A stretch of DNA of 64,000 nt from a bacterium. Lineage in GTDB: Bacteria > Elusimicrobiota > Elusimicrobia > Elusimicrobiales > UBA9959. The stretch lies in the NCBI GenBank assembly GCA_021786295.1, contig JAJYNO010000024.1:31848-95847 (forward strand), read 5' to 3'. A program made the position numbers and the translations under genes. Under the pieces are notes generated by a model. That model had not been told where the DNA came from and did no database searches. It was given only the letters and a program-made list of their open reading frames with translations. This document shows positions 3,148-30,821 of this stretch, piece after piece (position 1 is the stretch's first letter; each line of letters opens with the position of its first letter).

Positions 3148-3743
3148 CCCTGCTTTTCGCCACGCTGCCGGAGGCTGAGCCTTTCATAAAAGGCCTCAAA
3201 CTCAAAAGGACCGTCTCCGCTCCGTTCCCGGTATACAAAGGCCGCGGCCTGGCCCTGGTCCTTTCCGGCATAGGCAAGGCCGACGCCGCCATGGCGGCGG
3301 CCTGGACCTGCGAAAGGCTCTCCCCCCGCGTGCTGGTCAATCTCGGCGCGGCCGGCGCTGTCGGAAAGAAGCTGGATCCCGGGGACTGCCTTCAGATCTC
3401 GCGCGCGGTAGAGCCGGACAGACCCGGCCTCAGGACAGGGGCCCCCCGCGAGCATTTCCCGGAAGCGCTAAAAGGATTCAGGAACGCGGTAATAGCCACT
3501 CAGGACCGGCCGATCCTGTCAGCCGCCGACAGGCGCCGCCTGCTCCGGCTGGCGGACCTGGCCGACATGGAGACCTCCGCCTTCATCCAGGCCTGCCGCA
3601 GGTTCGGCCGAAGCTGTTTCGCCTTCAAGTTCGTAACGGACGCACCCGGCCATTCCTCGGGCGAGGACATCGTGCGCGGCATCCGGAAGCACAGGGACTC
3701 CTTCTTCAGTTTCTTCCTCTCCGCCGTCCTCCCCTCTCTCTAA
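3129..3743 (+). CDS. mqnB: Futalosine hydrolase / nucleosidase-family protein MqnB
   Basis: 204 aa from the internal ATG of track ORF 2850-3743 (the upstream part overlaps mqnD out of frame). PNP/MTAN-type fold motif LVLSGIGKADAAMAAAW. Last gene of the mqn cluster. Confidence 0.7.
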   Translation: MRRGPVALLFATLPEAEPFIKGLKLKRTVSAPFPVYKGRGLALVLSGIGKADAAMAAAWTCERLSPRVLVNLGAAGAVGKKLDPGDCLQISRAVEPDRPGLRTGAPREHFPEALKGFRNAVIATQDRPILSAADRRRLLRLADLADMETSAFIQACRRFGRSCFAFKFVTDAPGHSSGEDIVRGIRKHRDSFFSFFLSAVLPSL

Positions 3744-3749
3744 AAAGGT

Positions 3750-3850
3750 AAAAAGGGGGACAGGCTACTTTTTTACCTCAAAAAAGTCTTTGAATCACAA
3801 GAACAATTTTGAGTCCAAAGAAGCGAAAAAAGTAGCCTGTCCCCCTTTTT
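3750..3850. repeat. 101-bp AT-rich element bounded by perfect 25-bp inverted repeats (long hairpin / MITE-like)
   Basis: 3750-3774 AAAAAGGGGGACAGGCTACTTTTTT is the exact reverse complement of 3826-3850. An inner 7-bp pair is CTCAAAA 3777-3783 with TTTTGAG 3807-3813. Confidence 0.6.
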
Positions 3851-3860
3851 TGACAATAAA

Positions 3861-3895
3861 GAACGGCGCGGGGTGAGCCGCGCCGTTCTTTTTTT
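3861..3895 (+). terminator. Rho-independent terminator between convergent mqnB and protease genes
   Basis: 11-bp stem GAACGGCGCGG 3861-3871 with CCGCGCCGTTC 3878-3888, followed by a T7 run at 3889-3895. Confidence 0.7.
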
Positions 3896-6106: not shown

Positions 6107-6811
6107 CTACATGGAGGCTTCCGCTTCCCCGCTCTCTATGAGTTCCAGCACCCTGGCGGCCACCTGGTCCGCCGTGTCCACTCCCGGAGCGGCCTTGCCG
6201 TCGGCGCGGCTGTCGGCCGCGTCGCCGCCGACGGCGTTCACGCCGAAGCGCGTGGCCGTCATCCTGGGGTGCATCACGCTTACGACTATGCCGTCCTTTT
6301 CCAGCTCCCTGCGCGAGGTGAGCGAGACGGCGTTCAGCGCGTACTTGGTGGAAGCGTAGGCGGAAAGGCCCGGGAAATAGTTCTTGGAGACCATGGAGCT
6401 GACGTTCACTATGCGCCCCCCGCCGGCTGCGCGCATAGCCGGGATGACCCGCTGCATCAGGTCCACCACCGCGAAGAGGTTGAGCTCCATGACCTCGCGG
6501 TAGGCCTTCAAGGGCACTCTCTCCAGCGGGCCGTAGATCCCCTGCCCGGCGTTGTTGACCAGGATGTCCAGCCGGCCGTACTGGCCCAGGACCGCGTCCA
6601 CGAGGGCCTTTATCTCGCCAGGGCTGCGCAGGTCCGCGCGCCGGGCGGTGGCTCCGGGGATCCCGGCGGCGGCCTTCCGCAGCTTCTCTTCCGAACGGGC
6701 GGCCAGCGTAACCAGGGCCCCGGCCGCGCCCAGCCCGCGGGCGACGGCCAGGCCTATGCCCTCCGAAGCCCCGGTCACCAGCGCCGTCTTTCCCCTGAAA
6801 TCGTAGGGCAT
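6107..6811 (-). CDS. Short-chain dehydrogenase/reductase (SDR)
   Basis: Start moved to MPYDFRGKTALVTGASEGIG (ATG at 6811, 2 nt after the upstream stop). TGxxxGIG cofactor motif and YxxxK (YASTKYAL). Confidence 0.85.
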   Translation of the reverse strand: MPYDFRGKTALVTGASEGIGLAVARGLGAAGALVTLAARSEEKLRKAAAGIPGATARRADLRSPGEIKALVDAVLGQYGRLDILVNNAGQGIYGPLERVPLKAYREVMELNLFAVVDLMQRVIPAMRAAGGGRIVNVSSMVSKNYFPGLSAYASTKYALNAVSLTSRRELEKDGIVVSVMHPRMTATRFGVNAVGGDAADSRADGKAAPGVDTADQVAARVLELIESGEAEASM

Positions 6812-27780: not shown

Positions 27781-28262
27781 CCGATAACAGGAACAAGTTC
27801 AGGAAAATAGCCGTGGCCGCGGCGCGCATAGGCGACGCCAAGAAGGCCGAACCGGTGGCCGTCTACGACCTGGCCGGTACCTCCCCGCTGGCGGACTACG
27901 CCGTGCTGATGATGGTGGAGTCCGCCCCTCAGCTGGAGGCCGTGGAAGAGGACATCGTCCACAAGCTCAAGCAGGAAGGGGTCTTCTGCCTGCACAAGGA
28001 CGGCATGCGCTCGCGCAGCTGGAAGGTGCTGGACTACGGCGGCACGCTGGTGCACATCTACGACACCAAGGCCGCCGAATTCTACGCGATAGACAAGGTC
28101 TACGCGGGCTGCAAGCAGGTGCAGTGGGAAGAGAAGCCCGCTCCCGCGCCCAAGGAACCTGCCGTTAAGAAGGCCGCGCGCAAGCCGGCCGCTAAAAAGC
28201 CCGCGGCCAGGAAAACCGCCGCGAAGAAACCCGCGGCCAAGAAGACCTCCAAGAAAAAGTAA
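27777..28262 (+). CDS. rsfS: Ribosomal silencing factor RsfS with Lys/Ala-rich C-terminal tail
   Basis: 161 aa. RsfS core (LADYAVLMMVES...WKVLDYGGTLVHIY). Tail KKAARKPAAKKPAARKTAAKKPAAKKTSKKK. Confidence 0.85.
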   Translation: MTDNRNKFRKIAVAAARIGDAKKAEPVAVYDLAGTSPLADYAVLMMVESAPQLEAVEEDIVHKLKQEGVFCLHKDGMRSRSWKVLDYGGTLVHIYDTKAAEFYAIDKVYAGCKQVQWEEKPAPAPKEPAVKKAARKPAAKKPAARKTAAKKPAAKKTSKKK

Positions 28263-29869
28263 TGAAGCTCTCCACCCTCGAAGCCGACCTCAAGAGCCGG
28301 GCCAAGGCGGCCTTTTCCCTGGACGACGCCGCGCTGGCCGCTTTCGCGCTGTCCGCCCCGCCGCCGCATATCAAGGCCGACGCGTCCATAGCCTGGCCCA
28401 TCTCGGCCGCTAAGCTGCTGAAGAAGGCGCCGCTCAAGATCGCCGAGGAACTGAAGGCCGCTTTCGGCGCTGAGCTGGACCCGCAGGCCGTGGCGCCCGG
28501 CTTCGTGAACATCAAGCTTTCCAACGCCATGCTGTTCGAGGCGCTGAAGAAGCTGGGCGATCCGGACTGCTTCAAGCGGCCGGACTACGCCGGGGAAAAG
28601 ATTAATCTGGAGTTCGTATCCGCCAACCCTACGGGGCCGCTGCACCTGGCCAGCGGCCGGGCAGCTACTATGGGAGACAGCCTCGCCCGCATCTGGCGCG
28701 CTTTGGGCGCCGAGGTCTCGGAGGAATACTACATAAACGACGCCGGCCGGCAGGTGGTTATGCTGGGCCTGTCGCTGAAGGCGCGCCTGGAGGGCAAGGA
28801 GCCCCCGGAGGGCGGCTACCAGGGCGAATATCTTAAGGACATGGCCGCCGCCATGCCGAAGGAAGCCTCCGGCTGGACGGACAAGCAGTTCTCCGAATAC
28901 GCCGTCGCTGAGATGCTGAAGCTGCACAAGGCCGACATGAAGGCCTTCGGGGTGAATTTCGACCGCTGGTTCCGCGAGAGCGAGCTGCACGCGGCTAACG
29001 CATCGGAGAAGGCGCTGGCCGCGCTGAAAGAGCGCGGCATGACTTACGAGAAGGAGGGCGCCGTCTGGCTGGGCACCTCCTCCGTGATGGAATCTGACGA
29101 CAAGGACCGCGTGCTGGTGAAGTCCGACGGCAAGCCCTCATATTTCCTCAACGATATCGCTTACCACCAGGACAAGTTCGCCCGCGGCTTCACCAAGGTG
29201 ATAGACATCTGGGGCGCGGACCATCACGGCCACGTTCCGCGCATGGAGGCCGCCGTGGAGGCCCTCGGCATGCCCAAGGCTGCCTTCAAGGTGATCATAC
29301 ACCAGCAGGTGTTCCTGCTGCGCGGCGAGGAGATCATCAAGATGTCCAAGCGCGCCGGCGACTTCATCCCGCTGCGCGGCCTGGTGGACGACGTGGGCCC
29401 GGACGCCTGCCGCTTCTTCTTCGCCTCGCGCGGCCCCAACACGCATCTGAACTTCGACGTGGAACTGGCCAAGAAGCAGTCCAACGAGAACCCGGTCTAC
29501 TACGTGCAGTACGTGCACGCGCGCATCGCGTCCATCTTCGACAACGCCAGGGAGAAGGGCGTGGACCCGGCGGCGGCTTTCGACGAGGGCAAGGTCGTGA
29601 TCAACGACCAGGAGCGCGCGCTGATGCTGAAGCTGCTGTGGCTGGAGAAGGCCCTGGCGGACTCCGTGCGCGACAACTCCCCCCACCACCTGACCACGTA
29701 CCTGACGGAGCTGGCGGCCCTGTTCCACTCCTTCTACGACCAGCACAAGGTGCTGGACCCGGACAACAAGGAGACCAGCGCCTACCGCCTGTTCCTGCTC
29801 AAGCACGTCCAGGCCGTCATCGCCAAGGGCCTCGACCTCCTGGGAGTTTCCGCCCCCCAGCGCATGTAA
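28262..29869 (+). CDS. argS: Arginine--tRNA ligase
   Basis: 535 aa. ANPTGPLHLASGR (HIGH-type) and KMSKRAG motifs. Confidence 0.95.
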   Translation: MKLSTLEADLKSRAKAAFSLDDAALAAFALSAPPPHIKADASIAWPISAAKLLKKAPLKIAEELKAAFGAELDPQAVAPGFVNIKLSNAMLFEALKKLGDPDCFKRPDYAGEKINLEFVSANPTGPLHLASGRAATMGDSLARIWRALGAEVSEEYYINDAGRQVVMLGLSLKARLEGKEPPEGGYQGEYLKDMAAAMPKEASGWTDKQFSEYAVAEMLKLHKADMKAFGVNFDRWFRESELHAANASEKALAALKERGMTYEKEGAVWLGTSSVMESDDKDRVLVKSDGKPSYFLNDIAYHQDKFARGFTKVIDIWGADHHGHVPRMEAAVEALGMPKAAFKVIIHQQVFLLRGEEIIKMSKRAGDFIPLRGLVDDVGPDACRFFFASRGPNTHLNFDVELAKKQSNENPVYYVQYVHARIASIFDNAREKGVDPAAAFDEGKVVINDQERALMLKLLWLEKALADSVRDNSPHHLTTYLTELAALFHSFYDQHKVLDPDNKETSAYRLFLLKHVQAVIAKGLDLLGVSAPQRM

Positions 29870-29887
29870 GGGCCCAACAGCGGAAAA

Positions 29888-29921
29888 AGGAAACCGCCTC
29901 CCAAAGAGGCGGTTTTTCTTT
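29888..29921 (+). terminator. Rho-independent terminator of argS
   Basis: AAACCGCCTC-CCAAA-GAGGCGGTTT followed by TTCTTT. Confidence 0.8.
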
Positions 29922-29954
29922 ATTCGGTTCTCAACCTAAAACTTCAGTTCCGCG

Positions 29955-30160
29955 GGTGGAGCGAAGCGACACAATATAGCAGTATCCGCGAGAAGCCCAG
30001 TCGGGGCTTACCGCGCGGGACAGAACGCAAAACACGCTCAGGCACACCGTGCCCTCGCTCGGTACTCGCCCCCCGCGCTTATGCAAGCGGGGGGCTCGAC
30101 GACGGTTTTGCTAACCTGTCCCCCGCGGTCTCCCCTCCAACTTCGCCTTCGCTCTATTCC
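29955..30160. ncRNA. Candidate structured RNA of unknown class (strand unresolved)
   Basis: Nested complementary segments: 29959-66/30147-54, 30011-23/30116-28, 30027-33/30105-11. Local hairpins at 29993-30009, 30041-53 and 30068-95. No plausible ORF. Confidence 0.3.
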
Positions 30161-30185
30161 GGGGATGCAGTACTTAATTTCTCCG

Positions 30186-30821
30186 TTAACTGCCAGCATG
30201 AATGAGGGCGTAAAGCGCCTGAAGAGCCGGCAGCAGCCGTTCCCTGGAGATCCCGCCGGGCATGGAATGCCGGGGCATCACCAGCCGGGCCCTTCCGGGG
30301 GAGCCGGGCTTCAGTTCCAGCAGCAGAAAACCGTCGTCGGGGAGGGAGAAAAGACGGCGCAGCTGCTCCTTCACTTCCGGCGCGGAGAGCCAGGCGCGCG
30401 CCAGCTCTTCGTCGGAAGAAGAAAGGCGCACTAACTTGTCGATGTCCGGGTCGCCGGCCGTAAAAGTCCCGAAAGGCCAGAGGCCCAGCGCCACGCCGCT
30501 TCTGAGAGAATCTTTCCGGACAACGCGCAGGGCCGCCCTGAGCGCGGGAGACTCAAGGCATATACCCACCATATCGGGGCCGGTGTTGTATCTGCTGGTC
30601 GAATAGGGGGTTATGGTCAGAGGGCAGTCTTTATAGCTGCCGCGGAAAGACGGGTAAGACAGCAGTCCCCCCCTGGCCAACTCCCCCGACAGGAAGGTAG
30701 GCAGGGCCTCCAGGACCGCCCGGTAGTCGGCGAGCTCTCCGGAATGCATGATCCACACAAAACCTATCACCAGTACGTTTATAGCTATTACGATAAGCGT
30801 GACGATAAGAGTGGTGCCCAT
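30186..30821 (-). CDS. Hypothetical membrane-anchored protein
   Basis: 211 aa. N-terminal TM helix (LIVTLIVIAINVLVIGFVWI). No family recognised. Follows nuoN. Confidence 0.5.
   Translation of the reverse strand: MGTTLIVTLIVIAINVLVIGFVWIMHSGELADYRAVLEALPTFLSGELARGGLLSYPSFRGSYKDCPLTITPYSTSRYNTGPDMVGICLESPALRAALRVVRKDSLRSGVALGLWPFGTFTAGDPDIDKLVRLSSSDEELARAWLSAPEVKEQLRRLFSLPDDGFLLLELKPGSPGRARLVMPRHSMPGGISRERLLPALQALYALIHAGS

Follow-up and report, generated by a model that had tools for sequence, protein, structure and literature searches.

The structured intergenic region downstream of argS in the Elusimicrobiales genome studied here harbors a member of an interspersed repeat family. Within the window, that is, the whole stretch of 64,000 nucleotides that we analyzed, we attribute positions 29986-30140 to a solo copy of a repeat of about 150 nt from Elusimicrobia, which would behave as a selfish, non-autonomous element and be kept for the fold of a single strand. 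We assign this reading a probability of roughly 60%.

The region is bounded by the stop codon of argS on one side and by that of a convergent ORF on the other. The argS gene (28262-29869, + strand) codes for a 535-aa ArgRS with DALR, tRNA-synt_1d and Arg_tRNA_synt_N domains, and its product shares 75-79% identity with proteins from Elusimicrobia and Elusimicrobiales MAGs. The convergent ORF (30186-30821, - strand) codes for a 211-aa protein with an N-terminal TM helix and no Pfam match, and is a called gene in GCA_027372175.1. An identical protein is encoded on contig DAHXJO010000004.1 of that assembly and in four other assemblies. On DAHXJO010000004.1, this gene closes a same-strand run of nuoJ/K/L/M/N-like genes. 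Hence, the order on the minus strand is the nuo-like operon, the 211-aa ORF as its last gene, the structured region and then a shared terminator. The terminator is a bidirectional intrinsic one located outside the repeat (29889-29917), with a 12-bp stem and a T-run in either strand, which allows it to serve argS on the + strand and the convergent nuo-like operon on the - strand. From this gene order, the transcript of the nuo-like operon must cross the repeat before reaching the terminator. Many other copies of the family also adjoin terminators. The GC3 of the 211-aa ORF is 0.73, compared with 0.86-0.93 in the neighboring genes, and the ORF may thus be a later addition to the operon. No sigma-70-like site was detected in 29600-30500.

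The original prediction had described nested complementary segments in this region and read them as a multi-branch fold rather than spacer DNA. All of these segments are indeed present, and the fold proved to be real, as it is more stable than shuffled sequences and its core helices carry strong compensatory changes. When the 264 nt of 29922-30185 are folded as RNA, the predicted energies are -111.1 kcal/mol on the + strand (z -4.8) and -118.7 kcal/mol on the - strand (z -4.0), with no shuffle as good on either strand. The 150-nt core reaches z -5.7 (+) and -4.6 (-) as RNA, with at most one shuffle as good, and -6.8 (+) and -5.9 (-) with DNA parameters, with no shuffle as good. The repeat unit, a type A copy on the - strand if oriented by the strand that the family evidence favors as folded, is modeled as a closed Y/T-shaped structure in which a long closing stem (P0-P1-P2) opens at a three-way junction from which two hairpins project. 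The + strand served to build the covariance model. In these coordinates, P0 pairs GGGG (30003-06) with CCCC (30132-35), P1 pairs 30010-23 with 30116-29 (93% complementary), and P2 pairs GCAAAAC (30027-33) with GTTTTGC (30105-11). The P3 hairpin (30041-53) consists of GGCAC (30041-45), the loop ACC and GTGCC (30049-53), and the P4 hairpin (30068-95) has a 9-bp stem formed by GCCCCCCGC (30068-76) and GCGGGGGGC (30087-95) around the loop GCTTATGCAA. An extension specific to type A, CCGCGAGAAGCCCAGTC (29986-30002, + strand), lies outside the closing helix. Pairing of the P3 loop with the P3-P4 junction as a pseudoknot was considered and rejected because the junction partner is not conserved among the copies inspected.

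Comparison across the family corrects two points of the prediction. The outermost stem, GAGCGAAG (29959-66) with CTTCGCTC (30147-54), is complementary at 8/8 positions and the 5' hairpin AAGCCC/GGGCTT is present around 29993-30009, but neither is conserved in the family, whose closing helix is the GGGG/CCCC pairing of P0. The argument for the + strand that had been drawn from the G-U pairs of that stem does not hold across the family, where the evidence points to the minus strand. The absence of any known RNA class was borne out by a search of Rfam 15, which returned nothing at the gathering score across the whole 64-kb window; at E<=10 on 29800-30300, only weak chance matches to the terminator appeared, and these left the core uncovered.

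The family became apparent from related genomes. Among 80 related loci examined downstream of argS, homologues of the structured region could be recognized behind the argS terminator of two other Elusimicrobia MAGs, L008, with 84% over 167 nt, and L065, with 79% over 107 nt. A second copy in L008 is inverted and diverged. A hand-checked alignment of four sequences revealed compensatory changes in every core helix, involving 16 of the 35 predicted pairs. A covariance model (R1) retrieved two further copies, both in L025. The window copy scored 164.9 bits with R1 and 142.1 bits with the R2 model, and it is the only credible copy in the 64 kb by blastn and by R2 cmsearch with filters off. A pattern scan of metagenomes (CACACCGTG, 18-34 nt, GCTTAYGYAAGC) matched at least 120 stretches, and cmsearch on the stretches listed brought the family to at least about 158 non-overlapping copies in Elusimicrobia MAGs and metagenome contigs. 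The conserved unit measures 140-175 nt and comprises five helices, P0-P4. The hairpin tips, CAC-ACC-GTG and GC-GCTTAYGCAA-GC, are near-invariant; this is partly so by construction, since the scan pattern fixes both loop motifs. The bias is mitigated by the 20 copies that lie outside the scan pattern, 18 of which still carry CACACCGTG.

We then quantified pairing in 123 clean copies, in an alignment that was fitted to the model and therefore leans towards the model structure and inflates the figures somewhat: 89.4% of the pair cells are standard, versus 66.0% in column shuffles and 38-53% when partners are slid by 1-3 columns. Changes on both sides occur in 35 of 39 pairs of these copies, and double-change cells number 1011 against 301 expected. 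The slid controls and the hand-checked four-sequence alignment point in the same direction as these figures. By helix, P0 (helix 1) is 93% paired with changes on both sides in 4/4 pairs; the 14 pairs of P1 (helix 2) all show compensatory changes and are 92% paired; P2 (helix 3) is 89% paired and 7/7 pairs covary (AU to GC); and P3 (helix 4) is 95.5% paired, with covariation in its outer 2 pairs and a near-invariant CAC-ACC-GTG. Altogether, these data show that pairing, and not sequence, is what the family conserves.

No similarity was found in plasmid records, blastn gave no match in 5,426 E. coli genomes (20,395 records, which carry ERIC copies), and the one pattern match in viral contigs was not confirmed by the covariance model. 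A scan for the motifs as 11-12-mers with 2 mismatches returned noise that carried no information. In the literature searched, we found no paper describing a REP, a MITE or a structured ncRNA in Elusimicrobia, and as far as that literature shows, this family of about 150 nt is previously undescribed.

The original prediction had favored an RNA gene or a structured 3' UTR, and had anticipated that multiple copies would instead indicate a REP/MITE-type repeat. The latter is what we found: more than 150 family copies sit in unrelated intergenic contexts, which contradicts an RNA gene confined to this locus, and the 3' UTR survives only in a passive sense. The same data make it extremely improbable that the region is a single-locus RNA gene or a dedicated 3' UTR structure of argS or nuo. 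Such a reading would account for the stable fold and for the presence of a copy after argS in three genomes, but it is contradicted by the copies in unrelated contexts, by related genomes in which argS lacks the repeat, and by the gene downstream of the repeat, which differs in 3/3 argS-linked cases. An independent small-RNA gene is not supported by the sequence either: no sigma-70-like site was detected in 29600-30500, and around 91 singleton copies no promoter or terminator stands at a fixed distance. Neither a -10-like box nor a T-run keeps a set position in the flanks of these singletons, whichever flank and orientation are considered.

Several observations document the dispersal of the family. 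Contigs may carry several copies, with four within 6 kb in L188 and three each in L139, L153 and L103. Copies that are 98% and 96.7% identical sit in unrelated flanks. Moreover, many contigs end inside the element. L202 (which ends at base 6172) and L203 (which ends at base 2766) are independent assemblies of the window locus 29991-30140 that break off within P2 and P3 of the repeat. Apart from these breaks, five assemblies are 100% identical at this locus. As the window itself holds one copy, the multi-copy status of this genome is deduced from its relatives and from these assembly breaks. An empty site is available in L011, where the argS terminator is followed directly by a promoter-like motif of an ECF sigma gene (CTTTTTA|GTGAAACATT). 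At this type of junction, L065 carries a 151-nt unit exactly at that point and L008 carries a doublet. In this single comparison of filled and empty sites, the boundaries are exact and no target base is duplicated, which shows that the unit is an insertion relative to the empty site.

The junction between the argS terminator and the ECF sigma gene appears to be an insertion hot spot. In L047 (3695-3790), the same junction contains an unrelated 22-bp perfect inverted repeat (GGGGACGTTCTTAACTATCGGA ... TCCGATAGTTAAGAACGTCCCC). The motif GTGAAAC-N16-(C)GTGTCAT, which three Elusimicrobia MAGs conserve upstream of the ECF sigma-factor gene (L011 4655-4690, L065 4812-4845, L008 5002-5035), looks, from its sequence, like an autoregulated ECF promoter. 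The window contains yet another palindrome at 3743-3850, a 25-bp perfect inverted repeat (AAAAAGGGGGACAGGCTACTTTTTT / AAAAAAGTAGCCTGTCCCCCTTTTT) with an AT-rich loop of about 52 nt, located between convergent ORFs and followed by an intrinsic terminator (3858-3895). Judging by these features, it resembles a hairpin MITE of another family.

All of the copies listed are intergenic according to a crude GC3-based gene call. Among singletons with both neighbors within 300 nt, co-directional contexts are split 12:14 by orientation, and convergent sites outnumber divergent ones by 14:2 (p=0.004). Hence, the copies avoid divergent-promoter regions. Neither a recurrent neighbor family nor a linked transposase or HUH gene was found among 441 flanking ORFs. 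Similarly, tblastn with IS200 and IS608 TnpA (Y1) probes, which is a weak test, gave no match in the 1.5 Mb around the copies. Between some of the wider-spaced inverted pairs, there are only small hypothetical membrane or secreted ORFs.

The boundaries of the copies bear on the possibility of a classical DDE-type MITE, such as a Tn3-derived TIME. True MITEs are flanked by target duplications (e.g., TA or TTTAT) and carry inverted repeats matched by a transposase. The repeat does have inverted-repeat termini (P0-P2), and, by eye only, its outer ~39 bp look like the IR of the Tn3 family (GGGG-N15-GGAACGMAAAAC-ACGCTC versus GGGG-N14-GAACGAAAAC-TCACGTTAAG). However, no direct repeats of 4-9 bp exceeded the shuffled background in 138 copies at boundary offsets of 0-30, and there is none at the L065/L011 site. 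The sequence of P1 varies between copies whereas its complementarity is maintained, something that a transposase binding duplex DNA would not need, and the internal hairpins covary too. Moreover, type B ends start with GGCGG, the GGGG of type A is preceded by 17 conserved nt, plasmid records show no similarity, and there is neither a transposase nearby nor any sign of an autonomous partner among the flanking ORFs. We therefore consider a DDE-type MITE very unlikely. A Tn3-type inverted-repeat identity was rejected on the absent duplication, the variable ends and the lack of a plasmid match, and membership among classical MITEs is rejected by the lack of a duplication and by ends that vary from copy to copy with covariation. 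Outside the unit, the flanks contain about 0.02-0.08 bit of information per position, although one subfamily of eight copies is often preceded by TGAT, TGAA or TGAC.

Most copies are singletons. When copies are adjacent (gaps of -6 to 69 nt), they are inverted in at least 14 cases, with one polarity in which the 3' ends in model orientation face each other, and only two tandem cases were observed. Subtypes can be told apart. Type A, which includes the window copy and L008a, has an CCGCGAGAWGCNNAGTC extension before GGGG and ends in CCCC-TCC; this extension recurs in L008a, L146, L137, L090, L121, L143, L136, L173 and others. Type B has the ends GGCGG...CCGCC. In addition, one subfamily has a further stem at its ends, GCCGGCGG/CCGCCGGC, in which one variant is compensatory. 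Doublets mostly combine different subtypes with different P1 sequences, and one A-spacer-B doublet with the same spacer is found at two loci with different flanks (L146 and L123).

Partial copies also occur. In several loci, 5' fragments of 26-70 nt immediately precede a full copy and share its orientation (L111 7423-7450, L109 1275-1298, L177 about 2400-2429, L086 12019-12078, L095 14562-14589, L100, and both sides in L123). Nested insertion with deletion and template switching are both possible origins of these fragments. Extra hairpins are present in L139, L123, L146 and L025, and in some copies an additional internal hairpin contains GTGTCGCTTCGCTCCAC. In the window, this 17-mer occurs once as an exact match on the - strand (29956-29972), in the left arm of the outermost stem, and it resembles the P3-junction segment of the repeat. 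As an exact 15-17-mer, GTGTCGCTTCGCTCC(AC), it also lies inside or beside copies in L139 (3709-3723), L123 (9826-9840), L171 (485-499) and L100 (183-197), and may represent a partial internal duplication or the decayed fragment of a partner copy.

The mismatch spectrum of the 123-copy alignment informs both on the strand that folds and on the nature of the folded molecule. On the modeled strand (+ in the window), its 4687 cells include 4114 Watson-Crick, 74 G.U, 82 A.C, 351 C.U or U.C, and 24 A.G or G.A combinations. In typical RNA families, G.U is commoner than A.C. Here, neither strand shows an excess of G.U over A.C, which fits pairing in DNA. The mismatches are also strongly strand-asymmetric. 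At the center of P4, 96 copies have a tandem T.C/C.T mismatch on the +-type strand, which corresponds to 5'-GA/3'-AG on the opposite strand; P4 is fully Watson-Crick in only 20 copies, including that of the window. This opposite-strand arrangement is the sheared tandem G.A motif, which RNA and DNA can both form stably. The opposite, minus-type strand folds more stably in 126 of 132 copies, which is partly an effect of its G-richness, and its unpaired regions are purine-rich. The mismatch asymmetry, the tandem G.A of P4 and the greater stability favor the minus strand, which is most likely the folded strand in this window, and the folded molecule is probably single-stranded DNA rather than RNA. 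Among 67 singletons, with the window also considered, the favored strand shows a weak bias towards the strand that is C-rich in its surroundings and has negative GC skew (42:25 overall; 23:8 for |skew|>0.03). Such a bias may reflect replication orientation or gene-strand composition, and it is not predicted by a simple model of ssDNA in the lagging-strand template.

A functional RNA is one alternative reading. The repeat would then be a structured RNA produced from the minus-type strand and multiplied because it is useful, either as a cis-acting 3'-UTR or intergenic element (a stabiliser, a processing site or a protein-binding site) or as an sRNA processed from read-through transcripts. The very strong covariation in all helices, the near-invariant hairpin loops, the purine-rich unpaired regions and the strand-specific purine-purine (G.A) mismatches, with a tandem sheared-GA-type motif in P4 that is typical of RNA, would all fit such a role, as would the preference of the copies for gene 3' ends and the position of the window element, sense to the nuo-like operon and before its terminator. 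On the other hand, no conserved promoter or terminator is found on either side in either orientation, Rfam has no match, and G.U pairs are no commoner than A.C (74 vs 82). The 12:14 split shows that orientation is random with respect to co-directional genes, so transcription would yield the wrong strand for about half of them. The insertion relative to the empty site, the truncated copies and the assembly breaks are likewise repeat-like. On balance, we regard a functional RNA as rather unlikely.

The similar wobble and A.C counts have a further possible explanation, as this symmetry is expected if both strands or a duplex palindrome matter. The repeat could serve the host as a DNA element in the manner of BIMEs, being either cruciform-prone or bound by a protein (gyrase, a nucleoid protein, or a replication or recombination factor). 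The palindromic motifs CACNNNGTG and GCTTNNNNAAGC could, from their sequence, bind dimeric proteins, and the copies between convergent genes would suit such a function. However, the conserved tandem T.C/C.T mismatch and the C-versus-G asymmetry point to one folded strand. Moreover, near-identical copies at unrelated loci, nested or truncated copies and the indel at the argS site look selfish, and the density of copies is low and irregular, with one in 64 kb here and four in 6 kb elsewhere. A host-serving element of this kind thus seems quite improbable to us.

Compared with known systems, the repeat is closest in concept to REP/REPIN sequences, and we would best describe it as a REPIN/ERIC-like structured repeat. 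REPINs are extragenic sequences kept for hairpin formation with compensatory changes, organized as inverted doublets with singlets as possible remnants (PMC3116915). The repeat is likewise extragenic, multi-copy, palindromic and selected for its hairpins, makes no target duplication, and occurs in clusters, in partial copies and in inverted doublets with a short spacer. In contrast, a REP is a palindrome of 20-40 nt, whereas the repeat has about 150 nt, a three-way junction and two conserved tips, so that the unit is branched and four to five times the size of a REPIN. The partners of a doublet fold on themselves and not on each other, unlike in REPINs. Furthermore, REP/REPIN sequences reach hundreds per genome, while the repeat appears to be present in tens per genome, and, unlike in the REP/RAYT pairing, the Y1 probes revealed no RAYT in the 1.5 Mb surrounding the copies.

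Other small repeats share part of these features. ERIC is an imperfect palindrome of more than 120 bp, present in tens of copies, intergenic, often transcribed and found in either orientation. It is unusually conserved across species, and variants with insertions at fixed internal sites are known. The repeat is similar to ERIC/IRU in size, copy number and cross-species conservation, and its extra-hairpin copies can be compared with the ERIC insertion variants. It differs in having no sequence similarity, in being branched where ERIC is rod-like, and in belonging to a different phylum; membership in ERIC was rejected by the lack of a blastn match in the E. coli records mentioned above. The bcr1 repeats of Bacillus cereus, the Correia elements of Neisseria and the pneumococcal BOX and RUP elements are small non-coding structured repeats near gene ends that are co-transcribed, and the repeat is like them in being small, interspersed, non-coding and stable in its predicted structure. 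It departs from the true MITEs of this group in lacking their target duplication. Integron attC sites, which carry R''/R' core sites (GTTRRRY) and separate promoterless cassettes in arrays of one orientation, were also considered and rejected, as adjacent copies are inverted and not direct, the ends lack GTTRRRY, and the contexts are those of ordinary housekeeping genes.

A last group of systems concerns the substrates of HUH enzymes, namely IS200/IS605 ends, single-strand origins of RCR plasmids and parvovirus ITRs, which function only as a single DNA strand folded into T/Y-shaped or subterminal hairpins. The conserved hairpin tips and the lack of a target duplication are shared by the repeat. 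In addition, the GAGC-type repeats of the AAV ITR presumably resemble the GAGCGAG and GAGCG junction motifs on the minus strand of the repeat. Unlike these substrates, the copies are chromosomal and dispersed, and neither a linked Rep or TnpA gene nor a nick site or a conserved tetranucleotide in the flanks was found. A PATE derived from IS200/IS605 would be expected to make no duplication, to have a fixed tetra- or pentanucleotide 5' of the insertion and to be biased in strand with respect to replication. The repeat makes no duplication, its flank information is near zero apart from the eight-copy subfamily that often follows TGAT, TGAA or TGAC, and its GC-skew bias is weak.

Taken together, the reading that we prefer is that the family spreads as non-autonomous selfish DNA and would be selected in the form of one folded strand. 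This strand is most likely ssDNA, given that wobbles are tolerated no better than A.C mismatches. This fold would be recognized by a putative protein encoded elsewhere in the genome, for which an enzyme of the HUH/RAYT type is our best guess since no target duplication is made. The window copy would occupy a safe site between convergent transcription units, and its transcription, as a stretch of nuo-like 3' UTR ahead of the shared terminator, would be passive. Its stable fold could incidentally protect the 3' end of the nuo-like mRNA, but no demonstrable function belongs to this copy itself. More tentatively, and as a possibility to which we give less credit, the family may define a new class of structured elements, either as the substrate of a new duplication-free mobilization system in Elusimicrobia or as a new multi-copy structured RNA. 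The first version would imply a Y/T-shaped ssDNA with invariant tips recognized by a putative HUH-like or other enzyme, and the second a trans-acting RNA transcribed from the minus-type strand.

Recognizing 29986-30140 as a repeat copy guards against the annotation of a conspicuous fold with strong covariation as a new RNA gene or as a regulatory element of argS or nuo. It also adds a repeat family with a working covariance model, found neither in Rfam nor in the literature searched, to a poorly studied and mostly uncultured phylum. Repeats of this kind break metagenome assemblies and point to terminator-adjacent hot spots of insertion. Should the mobilizing enzyme be found, the host-element relationship of the REPIN/RAYT type would extend to a much larger, branched substrate.
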